Assembly: GCA_034434815.1 (NCBI GenBank)
Contig: DAOTYO010000053.1
Coordinates: 201-64,200, forward strand
DNA length: 64,000 nucleotides
Direction: 5' to 3'
Origin: Dehalococcoidia bacterium
GTDB taxonomy: Bacteria > Chloroflexota > Dehalococcoidia > SZUA-161 > SpSt-899
The position numbers and the translations under genes are program-made. The notes under the pieces are model-generated. The model was given only the letters and a program-made list of their open reading frames with translations. It was not told the origin of the DNA and did not search any database. Shown here piece after piece: positions 6,249 to 55,831 of this stretch (the stretch's first letter is position 1; every line of letters begins with the position of its first letter).

Positions 6249-6656
6249 TCATTTCACACCTTTCTTGTTCAAGAATGAGCCGTATTTCTTGTCGCTCCCT
6301 TTGATGTGCTTCTGAAGCCAATCGCTGAGGAATGCCATCACTTCTACGGAAAGGGCGGCCCTCCCTGCATCGAAGGCGCTCTTGAACTGAGAAACTTTAG
6401 CGGTAAAGGCGGCGTGCTCCCGTTTGTGGGGCGCATTTTCGGGATAGCCGAATTTCTCGAAATACTTTTCCTCTGTTTGGAAATGCGTTTGGGTGTATTC
6501 GATGAGCCCCTGCACGGTTTTCCCCAGAATCTCCTTGCCCTTTCCCATCCTCATTGCCTCATTGAGCTCGTTGATCATGCCGACGAGCTTCCGATGTTGG
6601 GCATCGATTTCAGCGATGTTCACCCGGAGGCTATCATCCCATTGGATCAAAGGCAT
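6249..6656 (-). CDS. hemerythrin-like metal-binding protein (bacteriohemerythrin)
   Basis: 135 aa; N-terminal WDDSLRVNIAEIDAQHRKL and His/Glu ligand spacing (H..H..E...H...H...D) characteristic of hemerythrin. Confidence 0.85.
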   Translation of the reverse strand: MPLIQWDDSLRVNIAEIDAQHRKLVGMINELNEAMRMGKGKEILGKTVQGLIEYTQTHFQTEEKYFEKFGYPENAPHKREHAAFTAKVSQFKSAFDAGRAALSVEVMAFLSDWLQKHIKGSDKKYGSFLNKKGVK

Positions 6657-6955: not shown

Positions 6956-6963
6956 ACTCCAAA

Positions 6964-7523
6964 TGAAAATGGAAGGATCGAATCCGAACGAAAGCGGGGG
7001 GGCAAACCCTGTATCCCCTATGAAGGCGGAATCTCCACAGGAGCGGTTGGAACGGGTGGAGGCGGCGCTGGGGTTGGTTCTAGAGCACATGAAGACCTCC
7101 ATCAAGGGCTCTGAGGTGCTCGAGGCGGAGCATACCCGCACCATCCTCTCTTCCATTGCCCTTGGCCTTTCCTCCGTTTCGCTCCTTGCCCTCTGGAGCA
7201 TTGCACTGGCCCGCGAGGATATTGAACTCAACCTCATGCGCTTCACCGTCGGTATGGCATTGCTTCTGCTCGCCGCTGTAACGGATCTGGCTTCCGCGCC
7301 GCTCTTGCGCCGGGCCGTCAACCGGGCCATCCTCGAGAAGGATCCCTCTCGATTGGTTCTCTCCCGTCATTCTTGGAGATCGTGGTTCGATCGTGATTTC
7401 TGGGTTCGGAGCAGACAGGAATCGCGTGATTTCTATCACCATCAACTGGCCCGCTTTGCCGCTCTGATCGTCTATATCGTAGCCGGTGTGTTCCTGATCT
7501 GGGCGGTGTTCACCCTCGAATAG
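6964..7523 (+). CDS. hypothetical membrane protein
   Basis: Several hydrophobic segments (ILSSIALGLSSVSLLALWSIALA; FAALIVYIVAGVFLIWAVF); start ambiguous (6909/6964/6970), 6964 chosen as it follows the candidate promoter. Confidence 0.5.
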
Positions 7524-7683
7524 CCGCCTCTTTTCCTCTGGATTCCCCCTCGTCCTTTCTCCCCGCTGTTTTTACGGACCCTTCACCGATTTCTAACCCT
7601 TTGTTGACCGCTGTTAACCGACCCGAGACCGTTCGTTCACCGGGCCCTTTACCCCGCGATGCTAGCCTAAAACCAAGAGGTCA

Positions 7684-8007
7684 ATGATGGTTTCGGCAAG
7701 CATCACCCTGAGCATTGTGGCCGTGATTGTCTCGTTCATTTTGAGCGTTCTGGGGGCCTTTCCGTTGAGCGATGGCACGACCGTTGGAGATGCCCTGCCG
7801 AACGCGGATGATTCGTCCAAGGTTCAGTCGGCGGCCGATGGCCTTTTGCTCGGCTACACCGATATCATCAACGATATCGCCTCTTTCCAGAAGGATCCGG
7901 ATCTGGCCCGGGCCGAAGCCCGCAAGGAAGCGATGTTCCGCTATGCCCGTGAGCTTCTCGGGCAGTATGAAGGGTTCAGCGGCACCCTCAGCGCAACGCT
8001 GAAGTAG
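7684..8007 (+). CDS. hypothetical small membrane-anchored protein (107 aa)
   Basis: N-terminal TM helix ITLSIVAVIVSFILSVLGAF; AAGAGG 5 nt upstream of ATG. Confidence 0.45.
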   Translation: MMVSASITLSIVAVIVSFILSVLGAFPLSDGTTVGDALPNADDSSKVQSAADGLLLGYTDIINDIASFQKDPDLARAEARKEAMFRYARELLGQYEGFSGTLSATLK

Positions 8008-9193: not shown

Positions 9194-9679
9194 TCATGGT
9201 TCTATCAGTGCACCCTCCACTGCAAGTTCAAAGACGCGTGCCGGACGCTTGCAAAGCGGCATGATATCGAAGTTGATATAGCCCGCCGGTTCGAGCGTGA
9301 ATCCATCCGGAAACCGCGCGTCTTTCTCTTCCCAGAGAATATTGCCCTCCCGATCTTTCACCCGATAAATCAATGCCTCAAACGAAAGCCTTTTGGCCGA
9401 TGTGTTCCTCAGCCAGCCCTTGACCCATGCGATGGACCATGCCTCGCCGGTGGCCTGATCCCATCGCACCTCCAGTTCCGGAGGGCCATCGTATGCGAAT
9501 TCGTATTCCCCCACATTGGCCCCGGTGCCTTGGACAACGTCCATCGGGTCGGCCTGCGGGTGCGGACTGAGGAGATAGATCGCTCCCCCGACGGCCACTG
9601 CCAAAAGGCAGAGGCCGAAGGCCAGCGTCCTCCGTCTTTGCGCCCTCCGCTGTTTACGCTCCCCGATTGAATCGAACAT
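9194..9679 (-). CDS. hypothetical single-pass membrane protein
   Basis: 161 aa; basic N-terminus then TM helix LAFGLCLLAVAVGGAIYLL; sits between the two WWGWWP paralogs. Confidence 0.5.
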   Translation of the reverse strand: MFDSIGERKQRRAQRRRTLAFGLCLLAVAVGGAIYLLSPHPQADPMDVVQGTGANVGEYEFAYDGPPELEVRWDQATGEAWSIAWVKGWLRNTSAKRLSFEALIYRVKDREGNILWEEKDARFPDGFTLEPAGYINFDIMPLCKRPARVFELAVEGALIEP

Positions 9680-9762: not shown

Positions 9763-10566
9763 CTACCATCCGCCCGTTTCGTGTTCGGCCGTTTCCCACC
9801 CCGCATACTCATCGCCCCCATCGAACTCATCCATCTCTTCTTCCGTCTCTTCCGGGGGCCACCAACCCCACCAATCCTCATGCCCGCAGGCGCTGCATTT
9901 GACAAGGCTCACGACGTATCCGTGGGCCCCGCACTGCTGGCACTCGAACGTATTCTGAATGTTGTACCCCATGGTGGAGCCCAGTTTCCGAACGATGCTC
10001 TTGCTTTGAGAGGTCGTCTTCTGGACCTGCCCGGATAGGGCCTGTATCTGTGAAGAAAGGGCCTGAACGGCGCTGGTCACCTTCGCCAGTTGTTGTTGCA
10101 TCTGGGCGATCTTCTGCAGCGAAGGATCCTTCTTTGCCTCCTGTTGGATCTGGCAGATGGTGATGACCGAGCCTTCGAGGGCTTCCACCCGCTTGACGAG
10201 ATCGGCGTCGGGGCCCTTGGAAGGAGATGCGCTTTTGACGGATCTCTCGATGGACTCCATCCTTCCCGCCAGGCTTTCCAATCGCTCGACGCGTTTTGAA
10301 AGGGCGGCGATCGCCTCTTCGAGGGATTTCAGCTCTTCCGCTGGAACGGCCGCCAGCGATGGGGCGGGTGCGGTGCTCACGACCGGGGCGGGTTCCTCTC
10401 TGGCTTTGGGCGGAGGCGTGCTGACTTTCTCCGGCTTGGGGGCCGGCTTTGGCTCAGGGGGCGGTGGCGGGGGTGGGGGCGGAGCAGCCGCCTTCGGCTT
10501 CTCCTGAGGCACATGCCCCGCCAGAAGCGCATCGATTGCGGCCTGTGATAATGTCTCTTCCGCCAT
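9763..10566 (-). CDS. putative CheY-P-binding output protein: FliM-like N-terminal peptide + Pro-rich linker + coiled coil + zinc ribbon + WWGWWP + acidic tail, paralog 2
   Basis: N-terminus MAEETLSQAAIDALLAG matches the LSQxEIDALL CheY-binding peptide of FliM/FliY; PPPPPPPPPEPKPAPKP linker; C-terminal FECQQCGAHGYVVSLVKCSACGHEDWWGWWP with spacing identical to paralog 1; GGAGAAGG RBS. Confidence 0.7.
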   Translation of the reverse strand: MAEETLSQAAIDALLAGHVPQEKPKAAAPPPPPPPPPEPKPAPKPEKVSTPPPKAREEPAPVVSTAPAPSLAAVPAEELKSLEEAIAALSKRVERLESLAGRMESIERSVKSASPSKGPDADLVKRVEALEGSVITICQIQQEAKKDPSLQKIAQMQQQLAKVTSAVQALSSQIQALSGQVQKTTSQSKSIVRKLGSTMGYNIQNTFECQQCGAHGYVVSLVKCSACGHEDWWGWWPPEETEEEMDEFDGGDEYAGWETAEHETGGW

Positions 10567-10578: not shown

Positions 10579-11676
10579 CTAGAGATCCAGAATCTCCGTG
10601 ATCAGCTTGAACTGGTGCTCCGGTTTCGAAAGATCGATATCGTAAGGAGGATAGACCTCCTTCCCCTCGACGTCGTAGCAAACGCGCACCACCGGCCGAC
10701 CGATATGCCCGATGTTCGCGTTGGTGATGATCCCCGATTCCCGGGTGTTGAGCCGGACCATGACGCCGCTCGGGTAGACGGGCACGCGGCGCGCGAATAC
10801 CTGAACGAGCTCCGGATCGAACAACTCCCCCGCTGAGGCCATGATGCTCTCGAAGGCATCCATGGGACTGTAAGGTCTGTGCTTGGGCCGGTAGGATACG
10901 AGCTCGTAGTACGTTTCCGCCATGCCGATGATCTGCGCGATGGGGGAGATATCCCATCCCTTGGCGCCCGTGGGATAGCCGCTCCCATCCCATCGCTCGT
11001 GATGCTGAAGGATGGCTTGAACGACGGGCTTCGGGATCCGCTCGATCCGCGATAGCAATTCATACCCATATATCGGATGCTTTTCGAACTCCTTGCGATC
11101 CGCCTCCGAGAGGGAATCCTTTTCCTTCCAGACCTCCGGTCGGATCCAGATATAGCCGATGTTCTCGAGCATGGCCGCCCGGCTCACGTTGGCCAGTTCG
11201 TTCGCATCGAATCCGGCTTCCTTGGCCAGAAGAATGGCCAAGGCCGTGATCTGCACGGGCAAGAAGAATTCATAGTCCGCTATCGAGATGCATCCGGTGA
11301 GATCGGGTTCCCCCAAGGGAACTTGCAAAACGGCTTGCAGAATGGCATGTCCGAACCTCTCTACCTCGAGCCGTGCCGCGTAGATTTCCGCATCTCCCGG
11401 GTTCTTCTGATCGGGTTTGCGCTGAATGCTCAGGAGCTTGCGCATGGCCTCTGTGGCGTCTTTGTGAATTTCCGGCCGGACGAGCGGCTGAATGACGAGA
11501 TCGGAGACACGGCTGTCCTCGATGAAGAGTTCCCAGACCTCCTTCTCCCACAGGAACCCGATGTGTTTCTGCTGAAGCTCGACGTTGGCCGGCAGAAGCA
11601 TTTTCCCGTGCCGGTCGATGACCGGCTTGGCAAGCTCCATACCCACCTTCGCCTTCTCTACCGATACCCGTCGCAT
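10579..11676 (-). CDS. HD-GYP domain cyclic-di-GMP phosphodiesterase, copy 1
   Basis: 365 aa; HD motif region and HHERWDGSGYP signature; strong [12 protein letters not shown]. Confidence 0.85.
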   Translation of the reverse strand: MRRVSVEKAKVGMELAKPVIDRHGKMLLPANVELQQKHIGFLWEKEVWELFIEDSRVSDLVIQPLVRPEIHKDATEAMRKLLSIQRKPDQKNPGDAEIYAARLEVERFGHAILQAVLQVPLGEPDLTGCISIADYEFFLPVQITALAILLAKEAGFDANELANVSRAAMLENIGYIWIRPEVWKEKDSLSEADRKEFEKHPIYGYELLSRIERIPKPVVQAILQHHERWDGSGYPTGAKGWDISPIAQIIGMAETYYELVSYRPKHRPYSPMDAFESIMASAGELFDPELVQVFARRVPVYPSGVMVRLNTRESGIITNANIGHIGRPVVRVCYDVEGKEVYPPYDIDLSKPEHQFKLITEILDL

Positions 11677-11707: not shown

Positions 11708-12820
11708 TCACAAGTCCAATATCTCCTCGATCAACTTGAACTGATGTTCCGGCTCCGAGAGATCCATGTTGATGGGAGGATGCACTTCGTTCCCGAGCAC
11801 ATCGTAGCAAATACGGACCACCGGCCGGCCCACATGTCCGATGTTCACGTTGGTGATGATCCCGCGGTGTTTGGTGTTCAATCGCACCATCACCCCGCTG
11901 GGGTAGATGGGCACCCGCCGGGCGAAGATCTGCACCAACTCCGGATCGAACAGCTCCCCTGCCGAGGCCATGACTTTTTCGAAGGCATCCATGGGCGAAT
12001 ATGGCTTGCGATTCGGACGGGCGGATCTGGCCTCGTAATACGTCTCGGCGATGCCGATGATCTGGGCGATGGGGGAGATATCCCAGCCCTTGGTTCCGTT
12101 GGGGTAACCGCTCCCGTTCCACCGCTCATGATGCTGAAGCACAGCCTGAGCCACCACCGGCGGCATCCGATCCAATTTGGAAAGCGCCTCGTAGCCGTGG
12201 ATGGGATGCTTCTCGAATACCTTCTGATCCTCCGGCGAAAGCGAATCCTTGTTCTGCCAGATGTGAGGCGGAGTCCAGATATATCCGATGTTCTGGAACA
12301 TGGCCGCCCGCCCCACGTTGATCAGTTCGCTATTGGGGAAGCCGGCTTCCCGGGCCAGCAATATGGCCAGCGCCGTCATCTGTACCGGCAGAATGAACTC
12401 GAATTCCTCCACCGTAGCGCTGCCGGTCAGATCCGGTTCCCCGAGCGGAGATTTCAGAATGGATTGGACGATTGCATAGGTCAAGCGATCCACCTCGAGC
12501 CGGGCCCCGTACATCTCCGGGGCGGCAAGATCCTTCTTCTCGTTTGGGTCGCGCTTCATGGTGAGCAAGCGGCGCACCGCTTCGATGGAGTCCCTTTGCA
12601 CCTCCGGCTTGATGAGCGGCTTGATGACAAGGTCGGGAACGCGGGAGTCCTCGATGAGAAGCTCCCAGACCTCCTTCCCCTGAAGGAGCCGCAGATGGTC
12701 TTCCTTGAGCTCGATGCCGGCCGGCAGAATGGTGTGCCCGTACTTATCCATGGCCGGTCGGGCCAGCTCCAAACCGGGAGTGGCTTTTTCCACGGATACG
12801 CGACGCAAGGCCGATGTCAT
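11708..12820 (-). CDS. HD-GYP domain cyclic-di-GMP phosphodiesterase, copy 2 (tandem paralog)
   Basis: 370 aa; HHERWNGSGYP; alignable with copy 1 across its full length; possible TTG start giving MRRVSVEK as in copy 1. Confidence 0.85.
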   Translation of the reverse strand: MTSALRRVSVEKATPGLELARPAMDKYGHTILPAGIELKEDHLRLLQGKEVWELLIEDSRVPDLVIKPLIKPEVQRDSIEAVRRLLTMKRDPNEKKDLAAPEMYGARLEVDRLTYAIVQSILKSPLGEPDLTGSATVEEFEFILPVQMTALAILLAREAGFPNSELINVGRAAMFQNIGYIWTPPHIWQNKDSLSPEDQKVFEKHPIHGYEALSKLDRMPPVVAQAVLQHHERWNGSGYPNGTKGWDISPIAQIIGIAETYYEARSARPNRKPYSPMDAFEKVMASAGELFDPELVQIFARRVPIYPSGVMVRLNTKHRGIITNVNIGHVGRPVVRICYDVLGNEVHPPINMDLSEPEHQFKLIEEILDL

Positions 12821-12839: not shown

Positions 12840-13658
12840 TCACGCGCTTCGGGCCGGAGGGCGCGGTTTGGGCGCGGTGAAGAATCTCCGATAGAACGAT
12901 GGCTCGATGAGCTCGAAGCCTATCTGTGTGCATTCGAAGATGATCTCGCTCCCTCCGATGAAGAGAATCCCGCCCTCCCGAAGGGCGTTTCGGAAGCCCT
13001 GATTGATTTGCCTCTTGGCGGCATCGGTGAAATAGATCACCACGTTCCGGCACAGGATCAAATCCAGATCTTTCTCGAAAGGATCGCTGAGAAGGTTGTG
13101 CCGCGAGAACTCCACCATTTCCCGAATCTTATCGTTGATCCAATATTTCTCCCCGGTCTTTCGGAAGTACTTCGTCAACCGATCCGGCCTCACCGCCCGC
13201 ACGTCCTGAGCGGTGTACGGGCCGCCGGCGATGGCCCGTTCCAGAATGCTTTCATCCAGATCGGTGGCCTTGATGGTGTGCCGCTTTCCGGGACTGATCT
13301 CGTCCAGAATGATGGCGATGGAATACGGCTCGGCACCGTTGGAGCACCCGGCGCTCCAGATCCGGAGCCGCGGTCTCTCCTTGAGGAGATCCGGGAGATA
13401 GCGCTTTTCGAGCTTATCGAATTGATGGGCGTCGCGGAAGAACTCCGATACGTTGATGGTCAGGAAGTCCTTCAGCTCCTGAAGCATCTCCCGATCCCGC
13501 TCGAGTTGCTGGAAATAGGCGGCGATGCTCGGCGCCTTGGCCCGCTCCAGATAAGAAGAGAGCCGGCGCCGCATCTGCTTTTCCTTGTAGCTATCAAGGT
13601 CGATGTTCGTGAGCTCCAGAACCTTGCGTTTAACGAATCCATATTCCAAATCGTCCAT
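12840..13658 (-). CDS. cheR: chemotaxis protein methyltransferase CheR
   Basis: Start set at MDDLEYGF (internal Met, preceded by GGAG); SAM-dependent MTase motifs (RIWSAGCSNGAEPYS; LILCRNVVIYF); upstream ORF extension overlaps cheB. Confidence 0.9.
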   Translation of the reverse strand: MDDLEYGFVKRKVLELTNIDLDSYKEKQMRRRLSSYLERAKAPSIAAYFQQLERDREMLQELKDFLTINVSEFFRDAHQFDKLEKRYLPDLLKERPRLRIWSAGCSNGAEPYSIAIILDEISPGKRHTIKATDLDESILERAIAGGPYTAQDVRAVRPDRLTKYFRKTGEKYWINDKIREMVEFSRHNLLSDPFEKDLDLILCRNVVIYFTDAAKRQINQGFRNALREGGILFIGGSEIIFECTQIGFELIEPSFYRRFFTAPKPRPPARSA

Positions 13659-13660
13659 AT

Positions 13661-14752
13661 CTAAGCTCCTGTACCCACGCTCTGGAACACCTCGCAGCGC
13701 CGGACGATCTCCGCCGGGATATCCGAGAGGGGCACGATGGCATCGGCATGGCCGGCCTCGACGATGCTCTTGGGCATCCCGTAGACCACACAGGAGGCCT
13801 CGTCTTGAACGATGACCTCCCCCCCCGCCTTCTTGATCAGGGCCGATCCCCGGGTGCCGTCGCTTCCCATGCCGGTGAGCACCACCGCGAGAACCGAAGA
13901 GCCGAAAGCCCCGGCTGCCGATTCCATGGTGACATTGGCGGCGGGGCGCAGGCCGCATTCCTGCGGCCCTTGGTTCAGAGCGATCCGACCTTCGCTATCA
14001 ACGGTCATGTGCTTGCCGCCCGGGGCGAACAAGACCATCCCCGCGCGGATCACGTCGCCTTCCTCCGCTTCCTTCACGGAAAGCTCTGAGGCCTCATCCA
14101 GTCTGGCCGCAAGGGACTTGGTGAATCCGGCGGGCATATGTTGCACGGCGAGGATTGGGGCGGGGAGGTTACCCGGCAACCGGGGGAGAACCTCCGCCAG
14201 AGCGCGGGGCCCGCCGGTGGAAGATGCGAACACGATCACTCGGTTCGGTGTGCTCCATCCGTTCGTATTCTTGTGAAGTGCTTTCTTGCGGCCCTTCTGG
14301 GCGCTCTTTTCATTCGGTCGTGGAGACGGCCGCAGGCGCGATTTCTCGATGCCGGCGGCCATCTTGATCTTGTGGATGAGTTCTTCCGAGGACTCCGCAG
14401 AGCCGACGGGGCTGACCACCGAAGGTTTGCAGAAGAAGTCCACCGCCCCCAGTTGAAGGGCTTGAACGGTGATCTCCGCCCCCTCCCGGGTGAGCGCGCT
14501 CAGCATCACGATGGGAGTGGGGCATTGCTCCATGATCTTGGCCACGGCCTCCATCCCGTCCATGCGGGGCATGGTGACGTCCATCGTGATGACCGTTGGT
14601 TGCAGGCTTCGAGCCATATCGAGGGCTTCGATGCCGTCTCGTGCCTGACCCACCACCTCGATCTCCGGATCGGTGCTGATCCGCTTGGAAATGGCAAATC
14701 GCGCGAACGCGGAATCATCCACCACTAGGACGCGAATTCTCTTGTTCACTGA
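13661..14752 (-). CDS. cheB: chemotaxis response regulator protein-glutamate methylesterase CheB (REC + methylesterase)
   Basis: GTG start (VNKRIRVLVVDDSAFARF) with AAGGAG 7 nt upstream; receiver domain plus C-terminal esterase domain (GASTGGPRAL ... GMGSDG). Confidence 0.9.
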   Translation of the reverse strand, partial: SVNKRIRVLVVDDSAFARFAISKRISTDPEIEVVGQARDGIEALDMARSLQPTVITMDVTMPRMDGMEAVAKIMEQCPTPIVMLSALTREGAEITVQALQLGAVDFFCKPSVVSPVGSAESSEELIHKIKMAAGIEKSRLRPSPRPNEKSAQKGRKKALHKNTNGWSTPNRVIVFASSTGGPRALAEVLPRLPGNLPAPILAVQHMPAGFTKSLAARLDEASELSVKEAEEGDVIRAGMVLFAPGGKHMTVDSEGRIALNQGPQECGLRPAANVTMESAAGAFGSSVLAVVLTGMGSDGTRGSALIKKAGGEVIVQDEASCVVYGMPKSIVEAGHADAIVPLSDIPAEIVRRCEVFQSVGTGA

Positions 14753-14849
14753 TAACTCCTTATCCGCTTCGGGAGCAAAAAGCACAGGCCCTTGCGGTCC
14801 CCGGAGCGCGTCTCCGATTGTTTGCGGTCGGCCTGTGAATCGCCTCGCT

Positions 14850-15209
14850 TCACTTACCGACCAGCTTTTGCACGGCGGCAAGAACCCGGTTCGGATCGAA
14901 CGGCTTGACCACGAAGTCCTTTGCCCCCGCTTTGATCGCTTCCATCACGATGGATTGCTGGCCCATCGCGGTGACCATGGCGACTTTCGCGTTCGAATCG
15001 ATCTTCATGAGCTGGCGCAGCGCTTCGAGCCCGTCCATATCCGGCATGGTGATATCGAGCATCACGGCGTCCGGCCGCTCCTTTTTGTACTTGTTCACTG
15101 CCTCTACGCCGTTCTCGGCCTCGATGCACTCATAACCGTTCTGGGTGAGGAGCTTGACCGCCCTCATCCGCATGAATTGGGCATCGTCCACTACCAATAC
15201 TTTCGGCAT
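14850..15209 (-). CDS. cheY: chemotaxis response regulator CheY
   Basis: 119-aa single receiver domain, MPKVLVVDDAQFMR..., conserved D13/D57 (LDITMPDMDG) and K109 (KPF). Confidence 0.9.
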   Translation of the reverse strand: MPKVLVVDDAQFMRMRAVKLLTQNGYECIEAENGVEAVNKYKKERPDAVMLDITMPDMDGLEALRQLMKIDSNAKVAMVTAMGQQSIVMEAIKAGAKDFVVKPFDPNRVLAAVQKLVGK

Positions 15210-15251
15210 AGCTTTTCCCCTCCTTCGATCTCGTCCTCGATAGGTGCTCTT

Positions 15252-15764
15252 CTATAGCTCTTTGGTGATGCCTCCGACGATCCTCACCACCACTTTTCCC
15301 GTGGCAATGTAGAGGCGCACGGTACGCCCGCGGTTCCCGCCGATGTCCTCGGCATCGATTCGGAGCGCCTCGTCCGCCAAGACTTTCTTGACCGCCTCGA
15401 TGTTCCGGGCACCCGTATCGAACCCTTTGGCAGAGGCGCCCGGCGAGAACATCTGGGCCCCGCCGGCGATTTTGACGATGAGCCGGGATCTCACGGCTCC
15501 TTGCTCGCGCATGCGTTGCAAGAGCTCGGGGATGGCCACATCGGCGTACTTGGTGGCGTTTTCTTTGGATTGTGTTCCGTTGGTGCTGAACGGAAGCACG
15601 ATGTGTGCCACACCTCCGACGCATGTTCCCGGATCGTACATGCAGAGCGCAATGCACGAGCCCACGCCCAGACAGGAAATGGTTACTTCGGGGTCTCTGG
15701 ATATCTTGATTTCCCCGAGATTGGCCACGAGCGATTTTTCGAGCGCCAATGTTTCTAGTGCCAT
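15252..15764 (-). CDS. cheD: chemoreceptor glutamine deamidase CheD
   Basis: 170 aa; GVGSCIALCMYD Cys motif and VAHIVLP His typical of CheD. Confidence 0.85.
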   Translation of the reverse strand: MALETLALEKSLVANLGEIKISRDPEVTISCLGVGSCIALCMYDPGTCVGGVAHIVLPFSTNGTQSKENATKYADVAIPELLQRMREQGAVRSRLIVKIAGGAQMFSPGASAKGFDTGARNIEAVKKVLADEALRIDAEDIGGNRGRTVRLYIATGKVVVRIVGGITKEL

Positions 15765-16408
15765 TTCACCCTCGCATATTGCCGATTCTGTTCGATCATC
15801 ACGTCCATGAATTCTTCCGTCGGAAGGACCAGTAAGGTTCCGGTGATCTCGCGGTCGTCCGATGAGAAAACGGTCTCCATGGCGAAGAGCTCATCACGGT
15901 GGGCCATGATCCCCGCGAGGGCGGAATCGAGCACGGCCCCGGCCATATCCACGATCACCGCCGGCGGCGATGGCATGAGCCTGAGCCCGGTGTTATCGGC
16001 CACGGAATTGAGAAAGAATGATCCGGTGATATTGCCCATTTCCCCGAGCACCGAGGCTTCAAGTTCGCCGAGCTCGGTGGTGGTGCCCTGTGGTTGATGG
16101 AGCATCATGTCCACCAATCCGAACGCGACGCGAATGGGATAGGCCAGCATGATGTGCCCGCTGGCCGCGCCGTTCATGGCCAGATAAATGACGACCACTT
16201 CGTTCTCGGGCCCTCCCACAAGATCGGCGGCGTTTTGAACCGGGATGATCTTCATTCCCAGCGCGGTGATCCGTATCTTGGTTCCGACCATTTCGGAGAG
16301 GCCCACAACGGCGTTCTGGGTTCCCATCCCCACCAATTCAGTCCAACGTGAGAGTTCGACATTCCGTATCCCCGGATTGTTGTTGTTCGGATGAGCTTGC
16401 TCCAACAT
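15755..16408 (-). CDS. cheC: CheY-P phosphatase CheC (CheC/CheX family)
   Basis: Start at MLEQAH with AAGGAGG 5 nt upstream; paired CheC-like half-domains (LSEMVG... and ELGNITGSF...); overlaps cheD by 10 nt. Confidence 0.8.
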   Translation of the reverse strand: MLEQAHPNNNNPGIRNVELSRWTELVGMGTQNAVVGLSEMVGTKIRITALGMKIIPVQNAADLVGGPENEVVVIYLAMNGAASGHIMLAYPIRVAFGLVDMMLHQPQGTTTELGELEASVLGEMGNITGSFFLNSVADNTGLRLMPSPPAVIVDMAGAVLDSALAGIMAHRDELFAMETVFSSDDREITGTLLVLPTEEFMDVMIEQNRQYARVKWH

Positions 16409-16482
16409 TGTCCTCCTTGTCTCTATGTTGGTTCGATACGGCTCCCTCCCGGCTGGCCAGTTCCGGTTGGTAGCCGATGGAT

Positions 16483-18615
16483 TCACTCTCCCATGACCAC
16501 CAGTTTTACCAGACTGGGCACATCGATGATGAGGGCAACCTCGCCCGTTCCCAGGATGCTTGCCCCGGCGATCCCCCGCACATCTCCGATGAACGTGCCG
16601 AGCGATTTCACCACCACTTCCTGAGGCTCTCTGAAGGAATCGATGGTCAACCCCACCATGCGTTCGCCCGCTTTGACCACCACCACGTTGATCATGCCGT
16701 TCGAGGGGGTATCCGCATTCCGAAGGCGAAGCACCTGATCGAGTTTGAGGAGGGGCACCACGCGGTCTCGGATGCGGATCACCTCTTTGCGGGTGACCGT
16801 CTGAATTTCCTCCGGCCTCAGACGGAGGACTTCACAGACGGATACCAGCGGAATGGCGAAAGTCACGCCGGCGGAGACGACCAGAAGTCCGTGGATCGTC
16901 GCCAGAGTGAGCGGCAATCGGAGGACGAATTTCGTCCCCTGCCCGATCTTCGTGCTCACGGCGATGTGCCCGTTGAGCGATTCGATATTCTGCCGGACGA
17001 TGTCCATGCCCACGCCGCGCCCGGAGACATCGGTGATCTTTTCCGCCGTGGAGAGGCCGGGCTCGAAGATGAGATCAATGGCTTCGGTATCGTCCATGCG
17101 TGCCGCCGTCTCGGCGGTGATGATGCCTTTCTTGACGGCTACCTCTTTGAGCTTGGCGCCGTCGATGCCTTTGCCGTCGTCTTCCACGGTAATGGCGATG
17201 TAGCTTTGCTCGTGCGCGGCGGCCAGCCGGATGGTCCCTTTCTCCGGTTTGCCGGCGGCCCGGCGTTTCTCCGGAAGTTCGATGCCGTGGTCCACCGCGT
17301 TCCTCAGAAGATGCACGAGCGGATCGCGGATGTGTTCGATCACCGAACGGTCGATTCCGGTCTCTTGCCCTTCCACGATGAATTCGATTTGTTTGCCCGC
17401 TTTCTGTGCCAGATCCCGGACCATTCGGGGGAAACGGTTGAAGACCGTTCCCACCGGCATCATCCGGGCCTCGGTGATATCGAGCTGAAGGTCATCGATG
17501 ATCTTGGAGACGTTCGTGATCGTTCGGGTGAGGCTCAGCACGTCCTGATCATCCCGGTAGCGGGCGGAAAGAATACTGCCGGTGCGGGTGAAGGCGGTTC
17601 GGGCCACCACCAGTTCCCCGATTTGATTCATGAGGTTATCGAGCCGGCGGACGTCAATCCGCACCGTCTCGGAAACCTTGACCCCCTCTTGGGAGGTGCA
17701 CGTTTTCTCCCCCGGTGGCGGGCCGCCCTCCGGCTTTTGCTGAGCGGATTGGATGATCTCTTCGGCGGCGGCAGCGGCCTCCGCTTCGGGTTCGGGGGGT
17801 GGGGGTGTCTCGGGAGGGGGAGAACCGCTGGGATCGTAGGCCTCCACGCGGATGCCGCCGATATCGGGAATGGCGGCGATGGCCTCATGGATTTCCCGTT
17901 CGGATAGCAAGCCGGCGAAGATGACGTTCAGAACGCTGCTGTTTTTCTCGGCCTCGATCTCCTTCTGAGTGGGCACGGAGGCGATGACCGTCCCCTTTTC
18001 CTTTAGATCATTCAGCACTTGGAAAAAACGGACGGATGTCCATTCGCATCCCTTCTGCGTTTCCACGGTGATTTGAAAGGCGCGGTTGCCCAGAGCCAGC
18101 GCTTGGCGAAGCTTGGTGAGGGCTTCATCCGTCAGGGGCACGCTGTTCTTCCGGGCCTTCTGCTTCTCGGCGTTCTTTCTCTTGGGGCCCGGTTTTGATG
18201 CCCGTGACGGTTGCTGCTGACCGGAGGCCAGCTCTTCCAGAGTAGCGATTACGGAAGTGACGTCGATCTCGGTCTCTGTATCGGCGGTGAGGTTATCCCG
18301 CAGGATTCTCAAATGATCCAGCGCGCTCAGAAGGGCATCGGCGATCGGTGTGGTCACGCGCAGGGTCCCATGGCGCAGCTTATCGAGGATGTTCTCCATG
18401 GCATGGGTGAGCTCCGCCATCATCTCGTAGCCGAGCATGGCCGAAGACCCTTTGATCGTATGAGCGGCGCGGAAGATCTCTTGGAGCAGTTCCGGGTTAT
18501 CCCCCTCGTTCTCCAGTTTGATCACATCCTCATCGAGGAGCTGCAACTGCTCATCGGTATCCTGAAGGAATACCTGAAGCTCTTCCGGCGTGATATCTGA
18601 AGCAAGCTTTACCAT
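16483..18615 (-). CDS. cheA: chemotaxis histidine kinase CheA
   Basis: 710 aa; N-terminal Hpt (P1) domain with FRAAHTIKGSS phospho-His motif, HATPase_c core (GRGVGMD), C-terminal CheW-like domain. Confidence 0.9.
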   Translation of the reverse strand: MVKLASDITPEELQVFLQDTDEQLQLLDEDVIKLENEGDNPELLQEIFRAAHTIKGSSAMLGYEMMAELTHAMENILDKLRHGTLRVTTPIADALLSALDHLRILRDNLTADTETEIDVTSVIATLEELASGQQQPSRASKPGPKRKNAEKQKARKNSVPLTDEALTKLRQALALGNRAFQITVETQKGCEWTSVRFFQVLNDLKEKGTVIASVPTQKEIEAEKNSSVLNVIFAGLLSEREIHEAIAAIPDIGGIRVEAYDPSGSPPPETPPPPEPEAEAAAAAEEIIQSAQQKPEGGPPPGEKTCTSQEGVKVSETVRIDVRRLDNLMNQIGELVVARTAFTRTGSILSARYRDDQDVLSLTRTITNVSKIIDDLQLDITEARMMPVGTVFNRFPRMVRDLAQKAGKQIEFIVEGQETGIDRSVIEHIRDPLVHLLRNAVDHGIELPEKRRAAGKPEKGTIRLAAAHEQSYIAITVEDDGKGIDGAKLKEVAVKKGIITAETAARMDDTEAIDLIFEPGLSTAEKITDVSGRGVGMDIVRQNIESLNGHIAVSTKIGQGTKFVLRLPLTLATIHGLLVVSAGVTFAIPLVSVCEVLRLRPEEIQTVTRKEVIRIRDRVVPLLKLDQVLRLRNADTPSNGMINVVVVKAGERMVGLTIDSFREPQEVVVKSLGTFIGDVRGIAGASILGTGEVALIIDVPSLVKLVVMGE

Positions 18616-18721
18616 GGCCGTTCTCCAGCTTTATCCGAAGCTCGTTGATATTCATCCCGTCCCCATCCCCGGAGGCCTCCTCATGGGAGGTTCTCCACAC
18701 CCCTGTGTTCTGCATCAGAGC

Positions 18722-19324
18722 TTACGGGGCGACCGCTTCTTTGGTCCGTGCGGTCTTCCCGCCTTTGGCCGTTTTGGCCCCCTTGGCTGCACTGGATTGG
18801 GGGGTTCCCTCCTCGGCTTCCGCCCCCGTTGGCGGTGTCTCCTCGGCCTGGGCGGCGTTGAACTCCGCCAGTTGGGAAGCCTGCCGCTGCGTGAGCAACT
18901 TATCCAAATCCAGAAGGATGATCATCTTATCCTTGAGTTTGGCGATGCCGAGAAGGTAATCGGCATCGGCGGAAGCGATGACGGAGGAAGGCGGCTCGAT
19001 CGTTTCCGAAGGGATGGTCAATACTTGGGTGACTTCATCCACCTGTACGCCGATCGGCTGGCCCCCGATATCCACCACCACGATCCGGGTTTCCTTGGTG
19101 ATTTCCCCTTCGGCAAGGGAGAAGAGCTTTCTCAAGTGGATCACCGGGATTACCCGGCCCCGCAGGTTGATCACCCCCTCCACGTAGGGTGGAGTGCGGG
19201 GAACACGTGTGATCTCCTGCATGCGCTCGATGCCGCTGACTTTGGCGATATCTACCCCGTAGGACTCTCCGGCCAGGGTGAAGACGACCAGTTGTTGTTC
19301 TGAACGGGATCCCGTAAAGCTCAC
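18722..19324 (-). CDS. cheW: chemotaxis coupling protein CheW with Lys/Ala-rich C-terminal tail
   Basis: 200 aa; CheW fold signature (QLVVFTLAGESYGVDIAKV...VINLRGRVIPV). Confidence 0.85.
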   Translation of the reverse strand: MSFTGSRSEQQLVVFTLAGESYGVDIAKVSGIERMQEITRVPRTPPYVEGVINLRGRVIPVIHLRKLFSLAEGEITKETRIVVVDIGGQPIGVQVDEVTQVLTIPSETIEPPSSVIASADADYLLGIAKLKDKMIILLDLDKLLTQRQASQLAEFNAAQAEETPPTGAEAEEGTPQSSAAKGAKTAKGGKTARTKEAVAP

Positions 19325-19400
19325 CGAAACACCTCCAAAAATCTATTTCTCGATCACGCCCATACTGCAGGGCTCAAGGTTCTCCCATAAAGTTGGTTGC

Positions 19401-21734
19401 CTACCGGGAGGCAAGTGCCGCTTCCTTCGAGAGCCTCTCCTGTTCGAGTTTGAAAGCGGATATCGCCTCCTGAAGCATCGTTGCCATATCCTTCAAGGTC
19501 TGGGTGGAGACGATGATCTCGTCCACCTGAGCGCCCATCTCTTCGGCGGCCGCCGAAACCTGTTCGGTCGCGGCGCTGTTCTCTTCGGCGACACCGGCCA
19601 CACTTTCGATGGATTTGCCCACCTCCTCGCTGGTGGAGGCCATTTGCTGGGCGGCGGCGGTGTTCATCTCGGTGATGCTGCCCACACCGTCAATGATGGA
19701 TACGAGCTCATTGGTGGAAGCGCTGATCTGTTCGGCGCCGGCCGAGATCTGTTCGATCTGATTGCTGACGGCGGCGGTGGCCTTGAGGATATCTTCGAGC
19801 GCATCGCCGGCTTCACTGGCGAGGCGATAGCCATCCTTCACTTCCTGAGCCCCTTCTTGCATCGCCTTCACCGCCTCGGCAACGCCCTTCTGAATGTTCC
19901 GGATGAGATCGGCGATCTCCTTGGTGGCGGAGGCCGTCCGCTCCGCGAGTTTGCGCACTTCATCCGAAACGACGGCGAATCCTCGACCGTGCTCGCCCGC
20001 GCGGGCCGCCTCGATGGCGGCGTTCAGGGCCAAGAGATTCGTCTGCGCGGCGATATCGTCAATCACGGCCACGATCTTGCCGATCTCTTCGGATTGGGTT
20101 CCCAGCCGGGTAACCTTGGCGGAGGCATCGTCCACAGTGGCGGTGATGCGCTCCATGCCTTCGACGGTCTGGCGGGCCTTGTCCGCACCCTTCCCGGCCG
20201 CTTCTGCGGCCGTCTTGGAACCTTCGGCGGCGGCGTTGGCGCTCTTGGCCATGGCTTCCATGGAAGTGGAAATCTCGCTGATGGCGGACGAGGCCTTCCC
20301 GACGCCTTCGGCCTGATCACGTGAGCCCTGCGCCACTTGCTCGATGATCTGGGCCAGTTGCTGCATGATCTGGGCGGATTGCTGCGCGGTGGCGGCCTGA
20401 TCCCCTGCGCCCTTGGCCATCTCCTGAGCGGTGGAGGCGACTTGCTGGGTCGCTTGACCCGCCTGTTTGGCCGCCACGGCCAGTTGTTCGCTGGCGCGGG
20501 CCAGTTGGTTCGCACTTTCCTTGACCTTGCCCACGACCATGATCAGATTCTCGGTCATCTGGGCGAAGGCCCTCAGGAGATGATCTTCTTCCGACCGCGG
20601 CTGGACGCGAACGGTGAGATCGCCTTCCGCAATCCGAATGGCGATGGCCGTGACCGCATTGAGGGAGTCGATCAGCACATTGAGATTGTTGCGAATCTCG
20701 TTGAAATCGCCTTTGTATTCGGTGGTGATCTTCTCGGGGATGTCACCTTTGGAAATTCGATTGATATAAGCTGCGGCGGCTCTCAGCGGATTGATGACCG
20801 CGTCCAATGTATCGTTAAAGCCCTGGATCACCTTCTGATAGTCGCCCCGGTGCTTAGCGGCATCGGCGCGAACATCGAGCCTTCCTTCCGTGGCCGCCTC
20901 CGCCAGCATTCGCGCATCGGTGACCAGAGCACCGACCGCTTCGATGCAGCCGTTGAGGCCGTCGCGGATCTTGTTGAAATCGCCGTTGTAGTCCTCGGTG
21001 ATCTTGGCCGGGATCTCGCCGCTCGCGATCTTGCCGATGTATTCGATCGCCCGATTGATTGCGCCCACGAAGATATCGATCAGGGCGTTGATGCTTCGGA
21101 CGATCGTCTGATAGTTGCCCTCGAACTTGGCGATATCGGCGCGGGCGGTCAATTGGCCCGCCGCCGCCGCCTCCATGAGCTCCTGAATGCTATCGGCGAT
21201 CTGGGTTTCCTTGCTGATGTCCACGATGTATTCCAGTGCGCCGATGATGTTCCCCTCGGCATCTTTGAGCGGTGTGGCCGTGTACCGGATGCTCATCGGT
21301 CCGGAGGGAAGGCTGGCCTCGGTATCGCCGGTGAAGACCCCGTCTTCGCTCATCGCTTGGGCACACCGGCATTCCTTGGATTGGCAATGATAGGTCTGGA
21401 ACAGTTCATAGCACTTGTGCCCCACGATCTCGCTCGTGGCCTTGCCCAGCATCTTGGCCGTTTTGCGGTTGACGTAAGTGATGGTGAAATCCGTATCAAT
21501 GGCGACTACCGGCGTGGGCAGGGCATCGAGGTACATCCCTTTCTGTTTGGCTTCGCCGAGTTCAGCCCTGAGGGATTCGAGCTCCTTCTTGCATTTGGTT
21601 GCTCCCCCCTCGGTTGATTTTGGTGCCTTCGCCGGAGGCGCCTCAGCCGGCATGGCTTCGACATCCGTGATCTGTGGAGACGATAGTTTCTTCTTCGCTG
21701 GCATTGCTTCCTCCTTTGCCGTTTCTCCCACCAT
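19401..21734 (-). CDS. soluble methyl-accepting chemotaxis protein with N-terminal Cys-rich PAS domain and HAMP-like repeats
   Basis: 777 aa; no TM helix; PAS-like region containing [21 protein letters not shown]; repeated GDIPxKITxxYxGDFN HAMP-like units; C-terminal MCP signalling domain ([35 protein letters not shown]). Confidence 0.9.
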
Positions 21735-22165: not shown

Positions 22166-23272
22166 ATGGCGAAGGGCAAAGGAAAAACCACGGAGATCGA
22201 ATTTGCGGCCTCCGATTCGATCGGTGAGGCGGTATCCCCGGCGGTTGAAGGTGAAGCTCAGTCCGATGCGATCGTCTGGACGGATACGCGCAGACGGATT
22301 CTCGATTGCAATCGGGCCGCGGAGCGCATCTGGGGCTCGATCGCCGGGAGCCTGAGGGGGCGGGACATCGGATTCCTTTTTGAAGGAGAAGTCCCGCAGA
22401 CCGGTCAGAGCCACTGCCGGGTGAAGGCGGCGGATGGGGGGAGTGTGGAGGGTTCCGTTGCCGTATCGGTGGTGCGGGATGGGCGTCGGAATCCCACCGG
22501 GTTCGTGTTCCGTTTTCATCCGGACGACGTGTCACCGGCGGTGGATGAGGGGTGGAATGAAGCCCTCGATGGGCTCGTGCGGGAGGAGAAACTCGCGGTG
22601 ATGGCGGAGGTCACTTCGAAGATCGCTCACGATGTGAGCAGCCCTCTTACCGCGATCTCTGGATACGCGCAGGTGATCATGGAAAGCGTGGGCGATGCGG
22701 AGATCAAGGAGGGATTGGGGATTATTCAGAAGGAAGCCAAACGGGTCTATACCATAATTCAAGATATTTCCTCCCACATTCGTGAACGCCGCGCTGAGAG
22801 AAAGGAACGGGTCTCTTTGAACACGTGCATCGAGTCGGTGTTGAAGCTCCATCGCCGGCGATTGGAAGGGAAGGGAATTCGTGTGATCACGGAACTAGAC
22901 CCCGATCTCCCGGAAGTAATAGCGGATGCCCGGCAGATGCAGATCGTGCTTTCGAATCTCATCCGCAATGCCGGGGAGGCGATGGCGGGGTGCGGGGGGG
23001 AGGGAAGACTCACCATCCGGAGCGGCGCATGCGATGGGCATGTGGTCATATCGGTGGCGGATAGCGGGCCCGGGATCGGGGAGGCGGTCATGGAAAGGCT
23101 CTTCGAGCCGTTTTCCGATGCGAAGGAAGGCGGTGGAGGGCTTGGTATGGGGTTGGCCGTCTGCCGGCGGATCATCCGCAGCCATGGCGGGCGCATCTCT
23201 GCGGAGAACTCCAACGGTGCCGGGGCGGTCGTAACGATCGAGTTGACCGCGCTCGCGGCCGATGAGGATTGA
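22166..23272 (+). CDS. sensor histidine kinase (PAS-like N-terminus, HisKA, HATPase_c)
   Basis: 368 aa; H-box KIAHDVSSPLTAISGYAQ; N, G1, G2 boxes (LIRNAGEAM; DSGPGIG; GGGLGMGLAV). Confidence 0.85.
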   Translation: MAKGKGKTTEIEFAASDSIGEAVSPAVEGEAQSDAIVWTDTRRRILDCNRAAERIWGSIAGSLRGRDIGFLFEGEVPQTGQSHCRVKAADGGSVEGSVAVSVVRDGRRNPTGFVFRFHPDDVSPAVDEGWNEALDGLVREEKLAVMAEVTSKIAHDVSSPLTAISGYAQVIMESVGDAEIKEGLGIIQKEAKRVYTIIQDISSHIRERRAERKERVSLNTCIESVLKLHRRRLEGKGIRVITELDPDLPEVIADARQMQIVLSNLIRNAGEAMAGCGGEGRLTIRSGACDGHVVISVADSGPGIGEAVMERLFEPFSDAKEGGGGLGMGLAVCRRIIRSHGGRISAENSNGAGAVVTIELTALAADED

Positions 23273-23340
23273 ATCTCCGGACTGCGAGTGCCGGCCGTTT
23301 ATCGGAAGAAGTCGAGAAACGAACGAGGGAGAAGCAAGAA

Positions 23341-23751
23341 ATGGGCACATCGGATCGGCAACCGACGGTGTTGGTGGTGGACGATGAGCAATCCGTGCGC
23401 GATGTGATCTACCGGTATCTGAGCAAACGGGGATACGATGTGTTGACTACCCGCAATGGGCGGGAAGCATTGCTCCTCGGCGCTCACGGCAACTTCGATG
23501 TCATTCTCCTCGATATCCACATGCCCGGGATGAACGGCCTCGAGGTTCTGCATCAGCTCAAGCAGAAGTATCCCGAGTGCGTGGTGATCATGCTGACCGG
23601 TGTGGCGGATCCGGAATCGTCCATCGAATCGGCAGCGATGGGGATGGGGGCGGCGATATTCTTGAAGAAACCGTGCCCGCTCGCCGAGGTGGAACGGGCC
23701 ATCGAAGAAGCGTTGGGGCGGGGTCGGAGCTGCGCGGGGGAAGCCAACTAG
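23341..23751 (+). CDS. single-domain response regulator (receiver)
   Basis: Start at MGTSDRQPTVLVVDDEQ with GAGGGAG upstream; conserved Asp (LLDIHMPGMNG) and Lys (KKP). Confidence 0.85.
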   Translation: MGTSDRQPTVLVVDDEQSVRDVIYRYLSKRGYDVLTTRNGREALLLGAHGNFDVILLDIHMPGMNGLEVLHQLKQKYPECVVIMLTGVADPESSIESAAMGMGAAIFLKKPCPLAEVERAIEEALGRGRSCAGEAN

Positions 23752-23909: not shown

Positions 23910-24602
23910 TCACAGTGGGTGTGATTGCTTATGCCCCGGGAAGGGGATCGGGCCGTTTTCTATCCTGTGGCATTCATCGGTGAGGGATTTGAACAGCCCT
24001 ATCGTGTGGACGATCTTATCCGCGATCTCCTCGGGCGGAAGGACGAAATCCACCATTCCCGTATCTATCGCCGCTTTGGGCATGCCGAAGACGGTGCTGC
24101 TCGCCTCATCCTGTGCCAGCGTAATGGCTCCGAGTTTCTTGATGTGACGGATGCCCCTTGCGCCATCCGCACCCATGCCCGTGAGAATGACCCCGATCAC
24201 GTTGAGCTTGGGTACGGGGGAAACAGATTTCATGAGAACATCGATCGAAGGGCGAACATAGTTCACCTTTTCCCCTTCGATGAGATTGATCCGCTCGTTG
24301 TCCTTGAGCACCATGTGGAGGTCGCTCGGGGCGATCAAGATCGTGCCGTTCTCGATCGGCATGCCATCGGCCGCCAAGCAAACTTTCATCGGCGTGACCA
24401 TGGAGATGGATTTGGTGACCGAGGTGTTGATGTACCTTGGCATGTGGAGAACGATAAGGATGCAAGCGGGGACCATGGCAATCTTGGAGATCACTCGCCG
24501 CACCGTCTGGGGGCCGCCGGTCGATGCCCCGATAATGACAATGGTGTTACACTCTGCCATCTCTGTCTTTCCGAAAATAGATCCCCGATGATGCTCCGCC
24601 AA
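23910..24602 (-). CDS. CheB-type methylesterase catalytic domain protein lacking a receiver domain
   Basis: 230 aa; IVIIGASTGGPQ, HMP, GMGADG motifs of the CheB esterase domain; no N-terminal REC. Confidence 0.75.
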   Translation of the reverse strand: MAEHHRGSIFGKTEMAECNTIVIIGASTGGPQTVRRVISKIAMVPACILIVLHMPRYINTSVTKSISMVTPMKVCLAADGMPIENGTILIAPSDLHMVLKDNERINLIEGEKVNYVRPSIDVLMKSVSPVPKLNVIGVILTGMGADGARGIRHIKKLGAITLAQDEASSTVFGMPKAAIDTGMVDFVLPPEEIADKIVHTIGLFKSLTDECHRIENGPIPFPGHKQSHPL

Positions 24603-55768: not shown

Positions 55769-55831
55769 CGCTACGCCGTCCTCGCCTTCCCCAACCGAAT
55801 AGGGGGCCGGTTCGCGTTCCAGGGGCGGTTC

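Follow-up and report, generated by a model that had tools for sequence, protein, structure and literature searches.

We find that an uncharacterized gene in a 64-kb window of Dehalococcoidia DNA (the whole stretch of 64,000 nucleotides analyzed here, from contig DAOTYO010000053.1) belongs to a protein family that is real, large, and undescribed. Its product, hereafter the target, joins a FliM-like peptide at the extreme N-terminus to a coiled coil and a C4 zinc ribbon followed by the motif WWGWWP. On balance, we favor the proposal that the target is a docking adaptor for phosphorylated CheY (CheY-P) built on a new scaffold, and that across the family this adaptor likely serves the archaellum. 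The parts of the proposal differ in strength. From its sequence, the target is very probably a CheY-P docking adaptor, and gene linkage makes it fairly probable that the family couples chemotaxis to the archaellum. Extending this coupling to the window's own gene is an extrapolation, because no archaellum (arl) genes lie near members of the window's clade, and we hold it only tentatively, at a little under an even chance. All of the results are computational and derive from sequence, synteny, and one structure model. Below, FAM denotes a target-type family member, xN-GYP a degenerate HD-GYP protein, smallTM a 161-aa membrane protein, and L-numbers the loci that we fetched.

The target product begins with MAEETLSQAAIDALLAG, and its start codon, preceded by the Shine-Dalgarno sequence GGAGAAGG, lies 12 nt beyond the stop codon of the upstream gene. 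From N- to C-terminus, the protein consists of the N-peptide, a Pro-rich linker that is presumed to be a flexible tether, a coiled coil, the zinc ribbon, WWGWWP, and an acidic tail (Table 1). A run of nine prolines lies inside the linker's ~60-residue Pro/Ala/Glu-rich segment, and the 30-residue tail contains 13 D/E and no K/R. The cysteines are C209, C212, C224, and C227, with WWGWWP at residues 232-237; the x13 spacing given between the knuckles in a preliminary description of this gene is therefore corrected to x11. The open reading frame (ORF) and its FliM-like N-peptide, both recognized in that description, are borne out, as is its statement that the protein carries no flagellar-switch domain: Pfam and NCBIfam contain no FliM, CheC, or CheX match for the target (E <= 0.01) and no match to a FliN/SpoA-type C-terminal domain, the C-terminus being the zinc ribbon. 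The CheF family is likewise unmatched in these databases. Placement in a characterized family was the result that the preliminary description had named as fatal to its idea, and profile searches give no such placement. No Pfam or NCBIfam family claims the target, coiled-coil families match only below threshold, and the similarity to Pfam DUF7310 (30.1 bits against a gathering cutoff of 40) is generic coiled-coil similarity. A weak L37e match was rejected, as it reflects the CxxC knuckle alone.

The extent and conservation of the family were determined by several searches. A word-indexed search of 5.8 billion proteins returned 19 relatives of the target, all 19 of which have both the N-peptide and the ribbon-WWGWWP module, and residues Q8, I11, D12, A13, and L14 of the peptide are invariant in an alignment of the first-pass homologues. 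Seeding a search with a paralogue encoded downstream of the target added a subfamily anchored by a transmembrane (TM) helix and a third, peptide-bearing subgroup. An exhaustive profile search of 1.84 billion cluster representatives with the C-terminal module yields 531 proteins at a threshold of E <= 1e-3, of which 348 also pass E <= 1e-10, and the module sits at the extreme C-terminus in almost all of the matches listed. A strict FliM-like peptide is present in 138 of the 188 unique members that have at least 90 residues before the ribbon. The position-wise consensus of these 138 is LSQAEIDALL; Q and D never vary, position 6 is I or V throughout, and the peptide-to-ribbon distance ranges from 90 to 307 aa (median 147). 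Because the peptide and the ribbon are conserved across homologues, both motifs are far beyond chance; loss of the LSQ..IDALL peptide or of the ribbon-WWGWWP in orthologues would have indicated a chance match, and both are kept. Two further features singled out in the preliminary description, the 9-Pro run and the acidic tail, are present in the target but are clade-specific and not conserved across the family, many members of which end a few residues past WWGWWP, often with basic residues such as KKK. We also rejected the acidic tail as a mimic of NWETF, the receptor pentapeptide that binds CheR/CheB, given that the tail is not conserved. Among the matches listed from species-representative genomes, all 13 that were confirmed are Chloroflexota, mostly metagenome-assembled genomes of Dehalococcoidia/Dehalococcoidales. 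A literature search for the WWGWW motif or for an adaptor that serves archaellated bacteria brought up no relevant work.

The N-peptide of the family is statistically indistinguishable from FliM_N, the N-terminal peptide of FliM. We built a 22-position profile from family N-termini only and searched it against all 177,635 distinct PDB chain sequences. One match is significant, namely FliM residues 3-17 (DSILSQAEIDALLNG; E = 1.5e-4), and it is in register and N-terminal; the next-best matches have E-values of at least 0.17. In FliM, this peptide ('EIDALL') is the docking site for CheY-P, where it lies in a groove of CheY alpha4 and alpha5 and serves as a high-affinity tether that raises the local CheY-P concentration (PMC9126983). 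The presumed ligand of the target's peptide is the CheY encoded in the upstream operon, which is nearest to Thermotoga maritima CheY (1TMY/4IGA; E = 2e-40) and near-identical to it over alpha4-beta5-alpha5 (AMGQQSIVMEAIKAGAKDFVVKPFDPNRVLAAV in the operon CheY versus AMGQQAMVIEAIKAGAKDFIVKPFQPSRVVEAL in T. maritima). 4IGA is a complex of CheY with a FliM peptide, and alpha4-beta5-alpha5 is the FliM-binding surface of CheY. If the proposed role is confirmed, the family would be, to our knowledge, the first case of a FliM-type peptide used outside flagellar switch proteins. Comparing 21 CheY-peptide pairs from different loci, we find that divergent peptides (LPQ..ID..F-KQA type) pair with CheYs that are changed at alpha4 (E to S, N, or T), at beta5 (F to S in three loci), and at alpha5. 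Two tandem CheY genes occur in the arl-linked chemosensory (che) operons of L014, L015, L036, L067, and L078 (for example, L078 5751-6516), one of them ~65% and the other ~45-50% identical to the window CheY.

In the C-terminal module, residues C, C, C, C, W, G, W, and P are invariant in an alignment of 91 sequences. An AlphaFold2 model based on this alignment has a mean predicted local distance difference test (pLDDT) score of 91.8; an earlier model from a 24-sequence alignment reached pLDDT 61, too low for use. The model contains two helices, one long and one short, and a small ribbon in which DWWGW is the last beta-strand. The distal coiled coil is one long helix at high confidence, and beta-strands surround the CxxC knuckles as in a C4 zinc ribbon, for which metal binding is predicted. 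Fold searches with this model returned no significant neighbor, only generic ribbon matches that are non-significant. The Pfam, NCBIfam, and literature searches are also without a match, in line with the preliminary description, which did not recognize the module from any described family. We find the module on three types of N-terminal head: the CheY-type peptide, a TM anchor, and a small basic helical head. Because it also occurs on a protein that is already membrane-anchored, oligomerization or docking is a more likely role for the module than simple membrane attachment. Proteins of the third type, found in L080-L103 (for example, L088 9761-10210), are ~150 aa long and combine a basic helical head (TEHVEQLLRQGRKPKELIELGFPKRVVTRV) with WWGWFP and a first knuckle of the form CxC. 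The L088 gene is followed by a tyrosine recombinase and further genes of a kind typical of mobile elements, with no che or arl genes, in surroundings that look like an integrated element.

The target lies in a minus-strand operon with the order MCP (methyl-accepting chemotaxis protein), CheW, CheA, CheC, CheD, CheY, CheB, CheR, two HD-GYP-family genes, target, smallTM, and paralogue. The preliminary description had rightly located the gene in a che operon; its placing of the target at the distal end of that operon does not stand, as smallTM and the paralogue follow co-directionally and the two HD-GYP genes intervene after cheR. As assigned by domain content, F1-class components are all present in this one cluster (CheA with P2, CheW, CheC, CheD, CheY, CheB, and CheR). 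Promoter-like and terminator-like sites occur in the operon at no higher frequency than in shuffled sequence.

The two HD-GYP-family genes point to a candidate second component of the system. Relative to the active phosphodiesterase PmGH (4MCW), the EN-GYP protein encoded immediately upstream of the target has LENIGY in place of MHDIGK and retains HHERWDGSGYP. Among unique FAM-adjacent GYP homologues, the HD dyad is absent in 43 of 43 (QN, EN, MN, or KD stands in its place) and HHERW[DN]GSGYP is kept, and the closest solved relatives are phosphodiesterases of cyclic di-GMP (c-di-GMP) and cyclic GMP-AMP (cGAMP). Because the metal-binding HD dyad is lost, hydrolysis of cyclic dinucleotides by these proteins is unlikely on the face of their sequences, and they are better viewed as binding or structural partners, that is, as pseudo-enzymes. 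Non-catalytic HD-GYP members that act as regulators are known, such as the 'YN-GYP' type of Pseudomonas and Bd1817. The xN-GYP proteins are like these in keeping HHERWDGSGYP without the catalytic dyad, and differ in the residues of the dyad, in having no REC domain, and in their che/arl contexts. As a conserved subfamily of pseudo-phosphodiesterases, they are associated with che and arl clusters.

Linkage of the family to both che and arl genes emerges from mapping che, GYP, and arl genes by tblastn across 104 loci. Upstream sequence of at least 1.2 kb is available for 31 unique members that bear the peptide, and in at least 26 of them the gene directly before FAM, on the same strand, belongs to the HD-GYP family. 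Among the five exceptions, L040 and L043 appear to be scoring artefacts, as the maps show an HD-GYP gene directly before FAM, and two others, L012 and L075, have CheY as the immediate upstream gene. Where at least 5 kb of upstream sequence is available, che genes are found upstream in 19 of 21 members. In the other two, L038 and L040, the GYP-FAM cassette ends an archaellum operon with the order ArlCDE-position gene, ArlG, ArlF, ArlH, ArlI, ArlJ, GYP, and FAM (one extra ORF separates ArlJ and GYP in L038). The arl operon of L047 also ends with the cassette, and no che genes lie between arl and cassette in any of these three loci. In total, arl genes are within a few kb of FAM in 18 fetched loci (L012-L015, L019, L022, L038, L040, L047, L048, L064, L067, L074, L075, L078, L086, L090, and L097). 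For instance, L019 and L022 contain co-directional superclusters of che genes, two GYP genes, FAM, a two-component system, archaellin, the ArlCDE-position gene, and ArlG/F/H/I/J, and the complete che and arl supercluster of L078 contains, besides these, only xN-GYP, FAM, and a single TM protein encoded after ArlJ. CheY and FAM alone adjoin the arl operon in L012, L064, and L075, without an HD-GYP gene; therefore, FAM is the minimal constant element. For its core, the arl annotation is a formal one: with the FlaI equivalog of NCBIfam, the archaellum ATPase reaches 608 bits (cutoff 550), and with FlaH, ArlH reaches 286 bits (cutoff 194). ArlJ is matched at E = 4e-125 but scores below its cutoff, the ArlG and archaellin matches are weak, and the ArlCDE-position protein has no family match and is named by position. 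These tabulated neighborhoods, near-universal for che, combine with the peptide profile and the CheY surface to support the dedicated, non-flagellar CheY-P output or adaptor predicted in the preliminary description, and they sharpen that prediction, since the likely output device is the archaellum.

A conserved, uncharacterized gene lies directly after ArlJ in arl operons of Dehalococcoidales (L012 10444-11247; L014 12781-13569; L015 12254-13003; L078 10341-11237) and faces the CheY adaptor gene. Its product has no family match. In L012, L014, and L015, it combines an N-terminal TM helix with a basic, FW(K/R)-rich segment and an extended acidic region (in L078, only part of the ORF was seen). 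We consider it a candidate for a further motor-associated component.

These findings bear on a gap in the recent literature. Archaella have been demonstrated in bacteria: complete clusters occur widely in Chloroflexota, which obtained them from Methanotecta-like archaea, and they are functional in Litorilinea aerophila; flagella and archaella are mutually exclusive in the phylum (PMC12488501; Sivabalasarma et al., 2025). The same study reports that CheF is absent from Chloroflexota and postulates an unidentified replacement component for signal transfer. A 2026 preprint (10.64898/2026.05.11.724246) finds that F1 chemosensory systems co-occur with Chloroflexota archaella, confirms the absence of CheF, proposes no adaptor, and notes that the distance between che and arl clusters may approach 1 Mb (997 kb in Ca. 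Lucifugimonas marina). The family described here is the best candidate for the CheF replacement in Chloroflexota archaella. The fuller claim, that it is the missing replacement and a bacterial invention in which the EIDALL peptide was grafted on a coiled-coil/zinc-ribbon scaffold, often with an xN-GYP partner, seems to us evenly balanced between true and false.

The family belongs to neither the FliM nor the CheF family; it would act as a tether like FliM_N and hold a position in the pathway like that of CheF. As in FliM and FliY, the peptide is at the extreme N-terminus and is followed by a flexible linker, its family consensus is the Salmonella/E. coli FliM sequence, and the role to be expected is the same, a high-affinity tether for CheY-P (compare PMC9126983). 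Unlike FliM, the family has no CheC-like middle domain and no FliN/SpoA domain, and its scaffold is the coiled coil and zinc ribbon. It resembles CheF in the proposed link from the CheY of an F1-like che operon to the archaellum motor, in the location of its gene at the che/arl interface, and in that both proteins are likely dimeric and elongated. The target differs from CheF in having no homology to it and no PH domains, and CheF binds CheY-P near the phosphorylation site via alpha1 and loops rather than by an EIDALL peptide in the alpha4/alpha5 groove (PMC9126983). What is new is a known motif, EIDALL, on a new scaffold as a probable CheY-output adaptor.

In the window's clade, the target is accompanied by membrane-protein genes. 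The paralogue consists of an N-terminal TM helix, a basic linker, a coiled coil, the ribbon-WWGWWP, and an acidic tail longer than that of the target, and it lacks the CheY-binding peptide. It matches the target by BLASTP over the coiled coil and ribbon (E = 1e-20) and forms a family of its own (P0024-P0037), in which the smallTM gene always precedes the paralogue gene. Pfam FlaC_arch (23 bits; cutoff 27.8) and DUF7310 (24.3 bits) match the paralogue below threshold, again as generic coiled-coil similarity. Kinship of the paralogue with the post-ArlJ TM and acidic protein or with the ArlCDE-position protein was rejected, as the similarity is not significant. In the crenarchaeal archaellum scaffold protein ArlX, a TM helix at the N-terminus leads into a cytoplasmic coiled coil, a layout to which the paralogue bears an architectural resemblance alone. 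We know of no zinc ribbon or WWGWWP in ArlX or in the euryarchaeal scaffold proteins ArlC/D/E. Pfam and NCBIfam scans give no family match for smallTM. Two convergent membrane-protein genes at 6963..8007 travel with smallTM and the paralogue and recur in the gene calls of L001, L006, L009, and L024, with no Pfam matches on record. The membrane module is separable from the CheY adaptor, because in L024 (9278-10807) the smallTM and paralogue pair is found without an adjacent che operon or a peptide-bearing member; its neighbors there are a PAS protein, a dCache-GAF histidine kinase, and recR/recO. Downstream of the module, a gene for a stand-alone hemerythrin-domain protein (6249-6656, minus strand) is kept in both L001 and L002. 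Its product might sense O2 or redox state, which may relate to the PAS-domain soluble receptors.

Based on these data, we propose the following mechanism. The N-terminal amphipathic peptide LSQAAIDALL would bind the alpha4-beta5-alpha5 groove of phosphorylated CheY from the upstream che operon, and the long, flexible Pro-rich linker would tether the captured CheY-P to the coiled-coil stalk. The zinc ribbon and the Trp-rich strand WWGWWP, found on different heads and hence portable, would act as an oligomerization or docking module, through which the ribbon and coiled coil may dock on, or assemble with, motor-associated proteins. The adaptor would usually act together with the degenerate, probably non-catalytic xN-GYP encoded just upstream. 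Gene linkage suggests that the receiver of the signal is, family-wide, most likely the archaellum motor that Dehalococcoidia and other Chloroflexota gained by horizontal transfer, where the adaptor would replace archaeal CheF by function and not by homology. In the window's clade, the adaptor probably pairs with the paralogue and smallTM via the shared coiled coil and ribbon, a pairing that would place CheY-P at a membrane complex.

Several observations weigh against this proposal. The co-variation of CheY and peptide is the pattern predicted by co-evolution of an interface, yet it is confounded by shared ancestry. Linkage of che to arl brings any che-operon gene near arl, so that the adjacency of FAM and arl is suggestive and not specific. 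The ribbon module also occurs in the mobile-element proteins without che or arl neighbors and is therefore not archaellum-specific, and the smallTM and paralogue pair can stand without an adjacent che operon (L024). Lastly, an archaellar output in the window's own genome would be an extrapolation: tblastn with archaellum proteins detects nothing in the 64-kb window, no arl genes lie in the 10 kb past either end (~84 kb in total), and none are found in the fetched flanks of L006, L009, and L011, which belong to the window's clade. For this clade, either the archaellum is encoded elsewhere in the genome or the adaptor serves a different membrane-associated output.

The second of these options is the alternative that survives best, though we consider it unlikely. 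Here, the output in the window's clade would be unrelated to motility, with CheY-P recruited to a complex of the paralogue, smallTM, and the two convergent membrane proteins in an 'alternative cellular function' pathway. Consistent with this, L001, L006, L009, and L011 share all four membrane-protein genes as a conserved group, the invariable smallTM-paralogue pair is also found independently of che in L024, and the ~84 kb around the target contain no arl, pilus, or flagellar genes. Among well-flanked loci, arl genes are nearby in none of the six with smallTM versus 10 of the 15 without it. However, peptide-bearing orthologues of sister clades lie in che and arl superclusters, and because che and arl are 997 kb apart in Ca. 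Lucifugimonas marina, the absence of arl genes nearby says little.

A tethered CheY-P might instead regulate the hydrolysis or binding of cyclic dinucleotides by the GYP protein, which would make the output a second messenger and the link to motility indirect. The near-obligate GYP-FAM adjacency with its 12-nt intergenic gap fits this idea, as do the conserved HHERWDGSGYP, the phosphodiesterases that are the closest solved relatives, and the absence of REC from the GYP proteins, which would need an external regulator. Against it, all 43 partners have lost the dyad needed for hydrolysis, CheY and FAM adjoin arl without any GYP gene in L012, L064, and L075, and no diguanylate cyclase was noticed in the loci, in which no systematic search for one was made. 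We therefore regard a second-messenger output as improbable. Lower still is our estimate for a CheY-P sink or phosphatase-targeting scaffold, which would concentrate CheY-P for dephosphorylation by CheC/CheD and so shape signal duration instead of passing the signal on. CheC and CheD are encoded in the same operons, and FliY of Bacillus, which bears the same peptide, is described as a CheC-family phosphatase in work cited by PMC9126983. The target, however, has no CheC-like domain, the cassette stands in arl operons with no CheC/CheD nearby in L038 and L040, and its constant neighbors are xN-GYP and arl, not CheC; this makes a sink very unlikely.

The EIDALL motif on FliM/FliY also recruits FlhG. 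A role for the peptide in binding a MinD/FlhG-type ATPase instead of CheY, by which the protein would position the motor or arrays, can nonetheless be set aside as the least credible of the alternatives: L. aerophila has MinD-like proteins and MinD4 acts in archaeal polar positioning (PMC12488501), but no MinD/ParA/FlhG-type protein with a deviant Walker A motif is encoded in 828 kb of family loci, CheY is immediately upstream in L012 and L075, and peptide variants track variants of the CheY surface.

Table 1. Features of the target gene, its protein, and its genomic surroundings in the 64-kb window.
Feature	Position	Strand	Basis or remark
Target gene (FAM)	9763..10566	minus	267-aa soluble protein; ORF and translation
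LSQAAIDALL, putative CheY-P docking peptide (EIDALL-type), residues 6-15	10522..10551	minus	Conservation and FliM match
Pro/Ala/Glu-rich low-complexity linker, residues ~17-76	10339..10518	minus	Sequence; homologues differ in length and sequence
Coiled-coil region, residues ~77-200	9967..10338	minus	Helical, heptad-rich; sub-threshold coiled-coil family matches
C4 zinc ribbon and WWGWWP, residues 207-237	9856..9948	minus	C-x2-C-x11-C-x2-C-x4-WWGWWP
Acidic C-terminal tail, residues 238-267	9766..9855	minus	Clade-specific
Degenerate HD-GYP without REC (EN-GYP)	10579..11676	minus	Pfam HD_5 2.5e-32; immediately upstream of target
Second degenerate HD-GYP without REC (QN-GYP)	11708..12820	minus	Pfam HD_5 3.2e-33; FQNIGY (alignment row L001_1)
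Chemosensory operon upstream of target	12840..21734	minus	Pfam; gene calls on identical contigs
CheR	12840-13958 (longest ORF)	minus	Pfam
CheB	13661-14881 (longest ORF)	minus	Pfam
CheY, presumed ligand of N-peptide	14850..15209	minus	Response_reg 1e-31
CheD	15252-15764	minus	Pfam
CheC	15755-16486	minus	Pfam
CheA with P2 domain	16483-18615	minus	Pfam
CheW	18722-19324	minus	Pfam
Soluble PAS-HAMP-MCP	19401-21734	minus	Pfam
smallTM, 161-aa single-pass membrane protein	9194..9679	minus	Directly downstream of target; conserved in window's clade
TM-anchored paralogue, 360 aa	8056..9138	minus	Same ribbon-WWGWWP module
Membrane-protein gene, 106 aa	7687-8007	plus	Convergent with operon; travels with smallTM and paralogue
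Membrane-protein gene, 186 aa	6963-7523	plus	Convergent with operon; travels with smallTM and paralogue

Additional signaling genes surround the che operon. Directly upstream of it are a PAS histidine kinase (22166-23272, plus strand), a stand-alone receiver (23269-23751, plus), and a REC-less CheB-type methylesterase (23910-24602, minus). The recurrence of this trio beside the che clusters of L004 and L010 suggests that demethylation has a second input under different control. A second soluble receptor, a PAS-PAS-HAMP-MCP, is encoded just past window position 1 (L105 7248-9476), ~0.5 kb upstream of a P-type ATPase gene. Neither of the two receptors near the che operon has a Pfam transmembrane or periplasmic sensor domain, which suggests that they form a cytoplasmic array. 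The rest of the window and 10 kb past each end carry metabolic and housekeeping genes, including CoA-transferases, acyl-CoA dehydrogenases, a thiolase, a molybdopterin oxidoreductase, a class II aminoacyl-tRNA synthetase, and an RlmN-like radical SAM enzyme. At 55113-57220 (minus), a gene with a faint Y1 (IS200/IS605-type) transposase signal, followed by two ORFs without a family match, breaks a metabolic stretch rich in acyl-CoA/CoA-transferase genes.

The family described here provides a concrete, testable candidate for an openly stated gap, the signal path from CheY to the Chloroflexota archaellum in the absence of CheF. It also brings forward xN-GYP as a second candidate component and a Trp-rich zinc-ribbon module that is portable. 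If the proposal is true, it would explain how the host exerts chemotactic control over a horizontally acquired motor: a bacterial-type CheY would switch or modulate an archaeal rotary motor, and the pathway would have been rewired by a short linear motif and not by co-transfer of the native adaptor.

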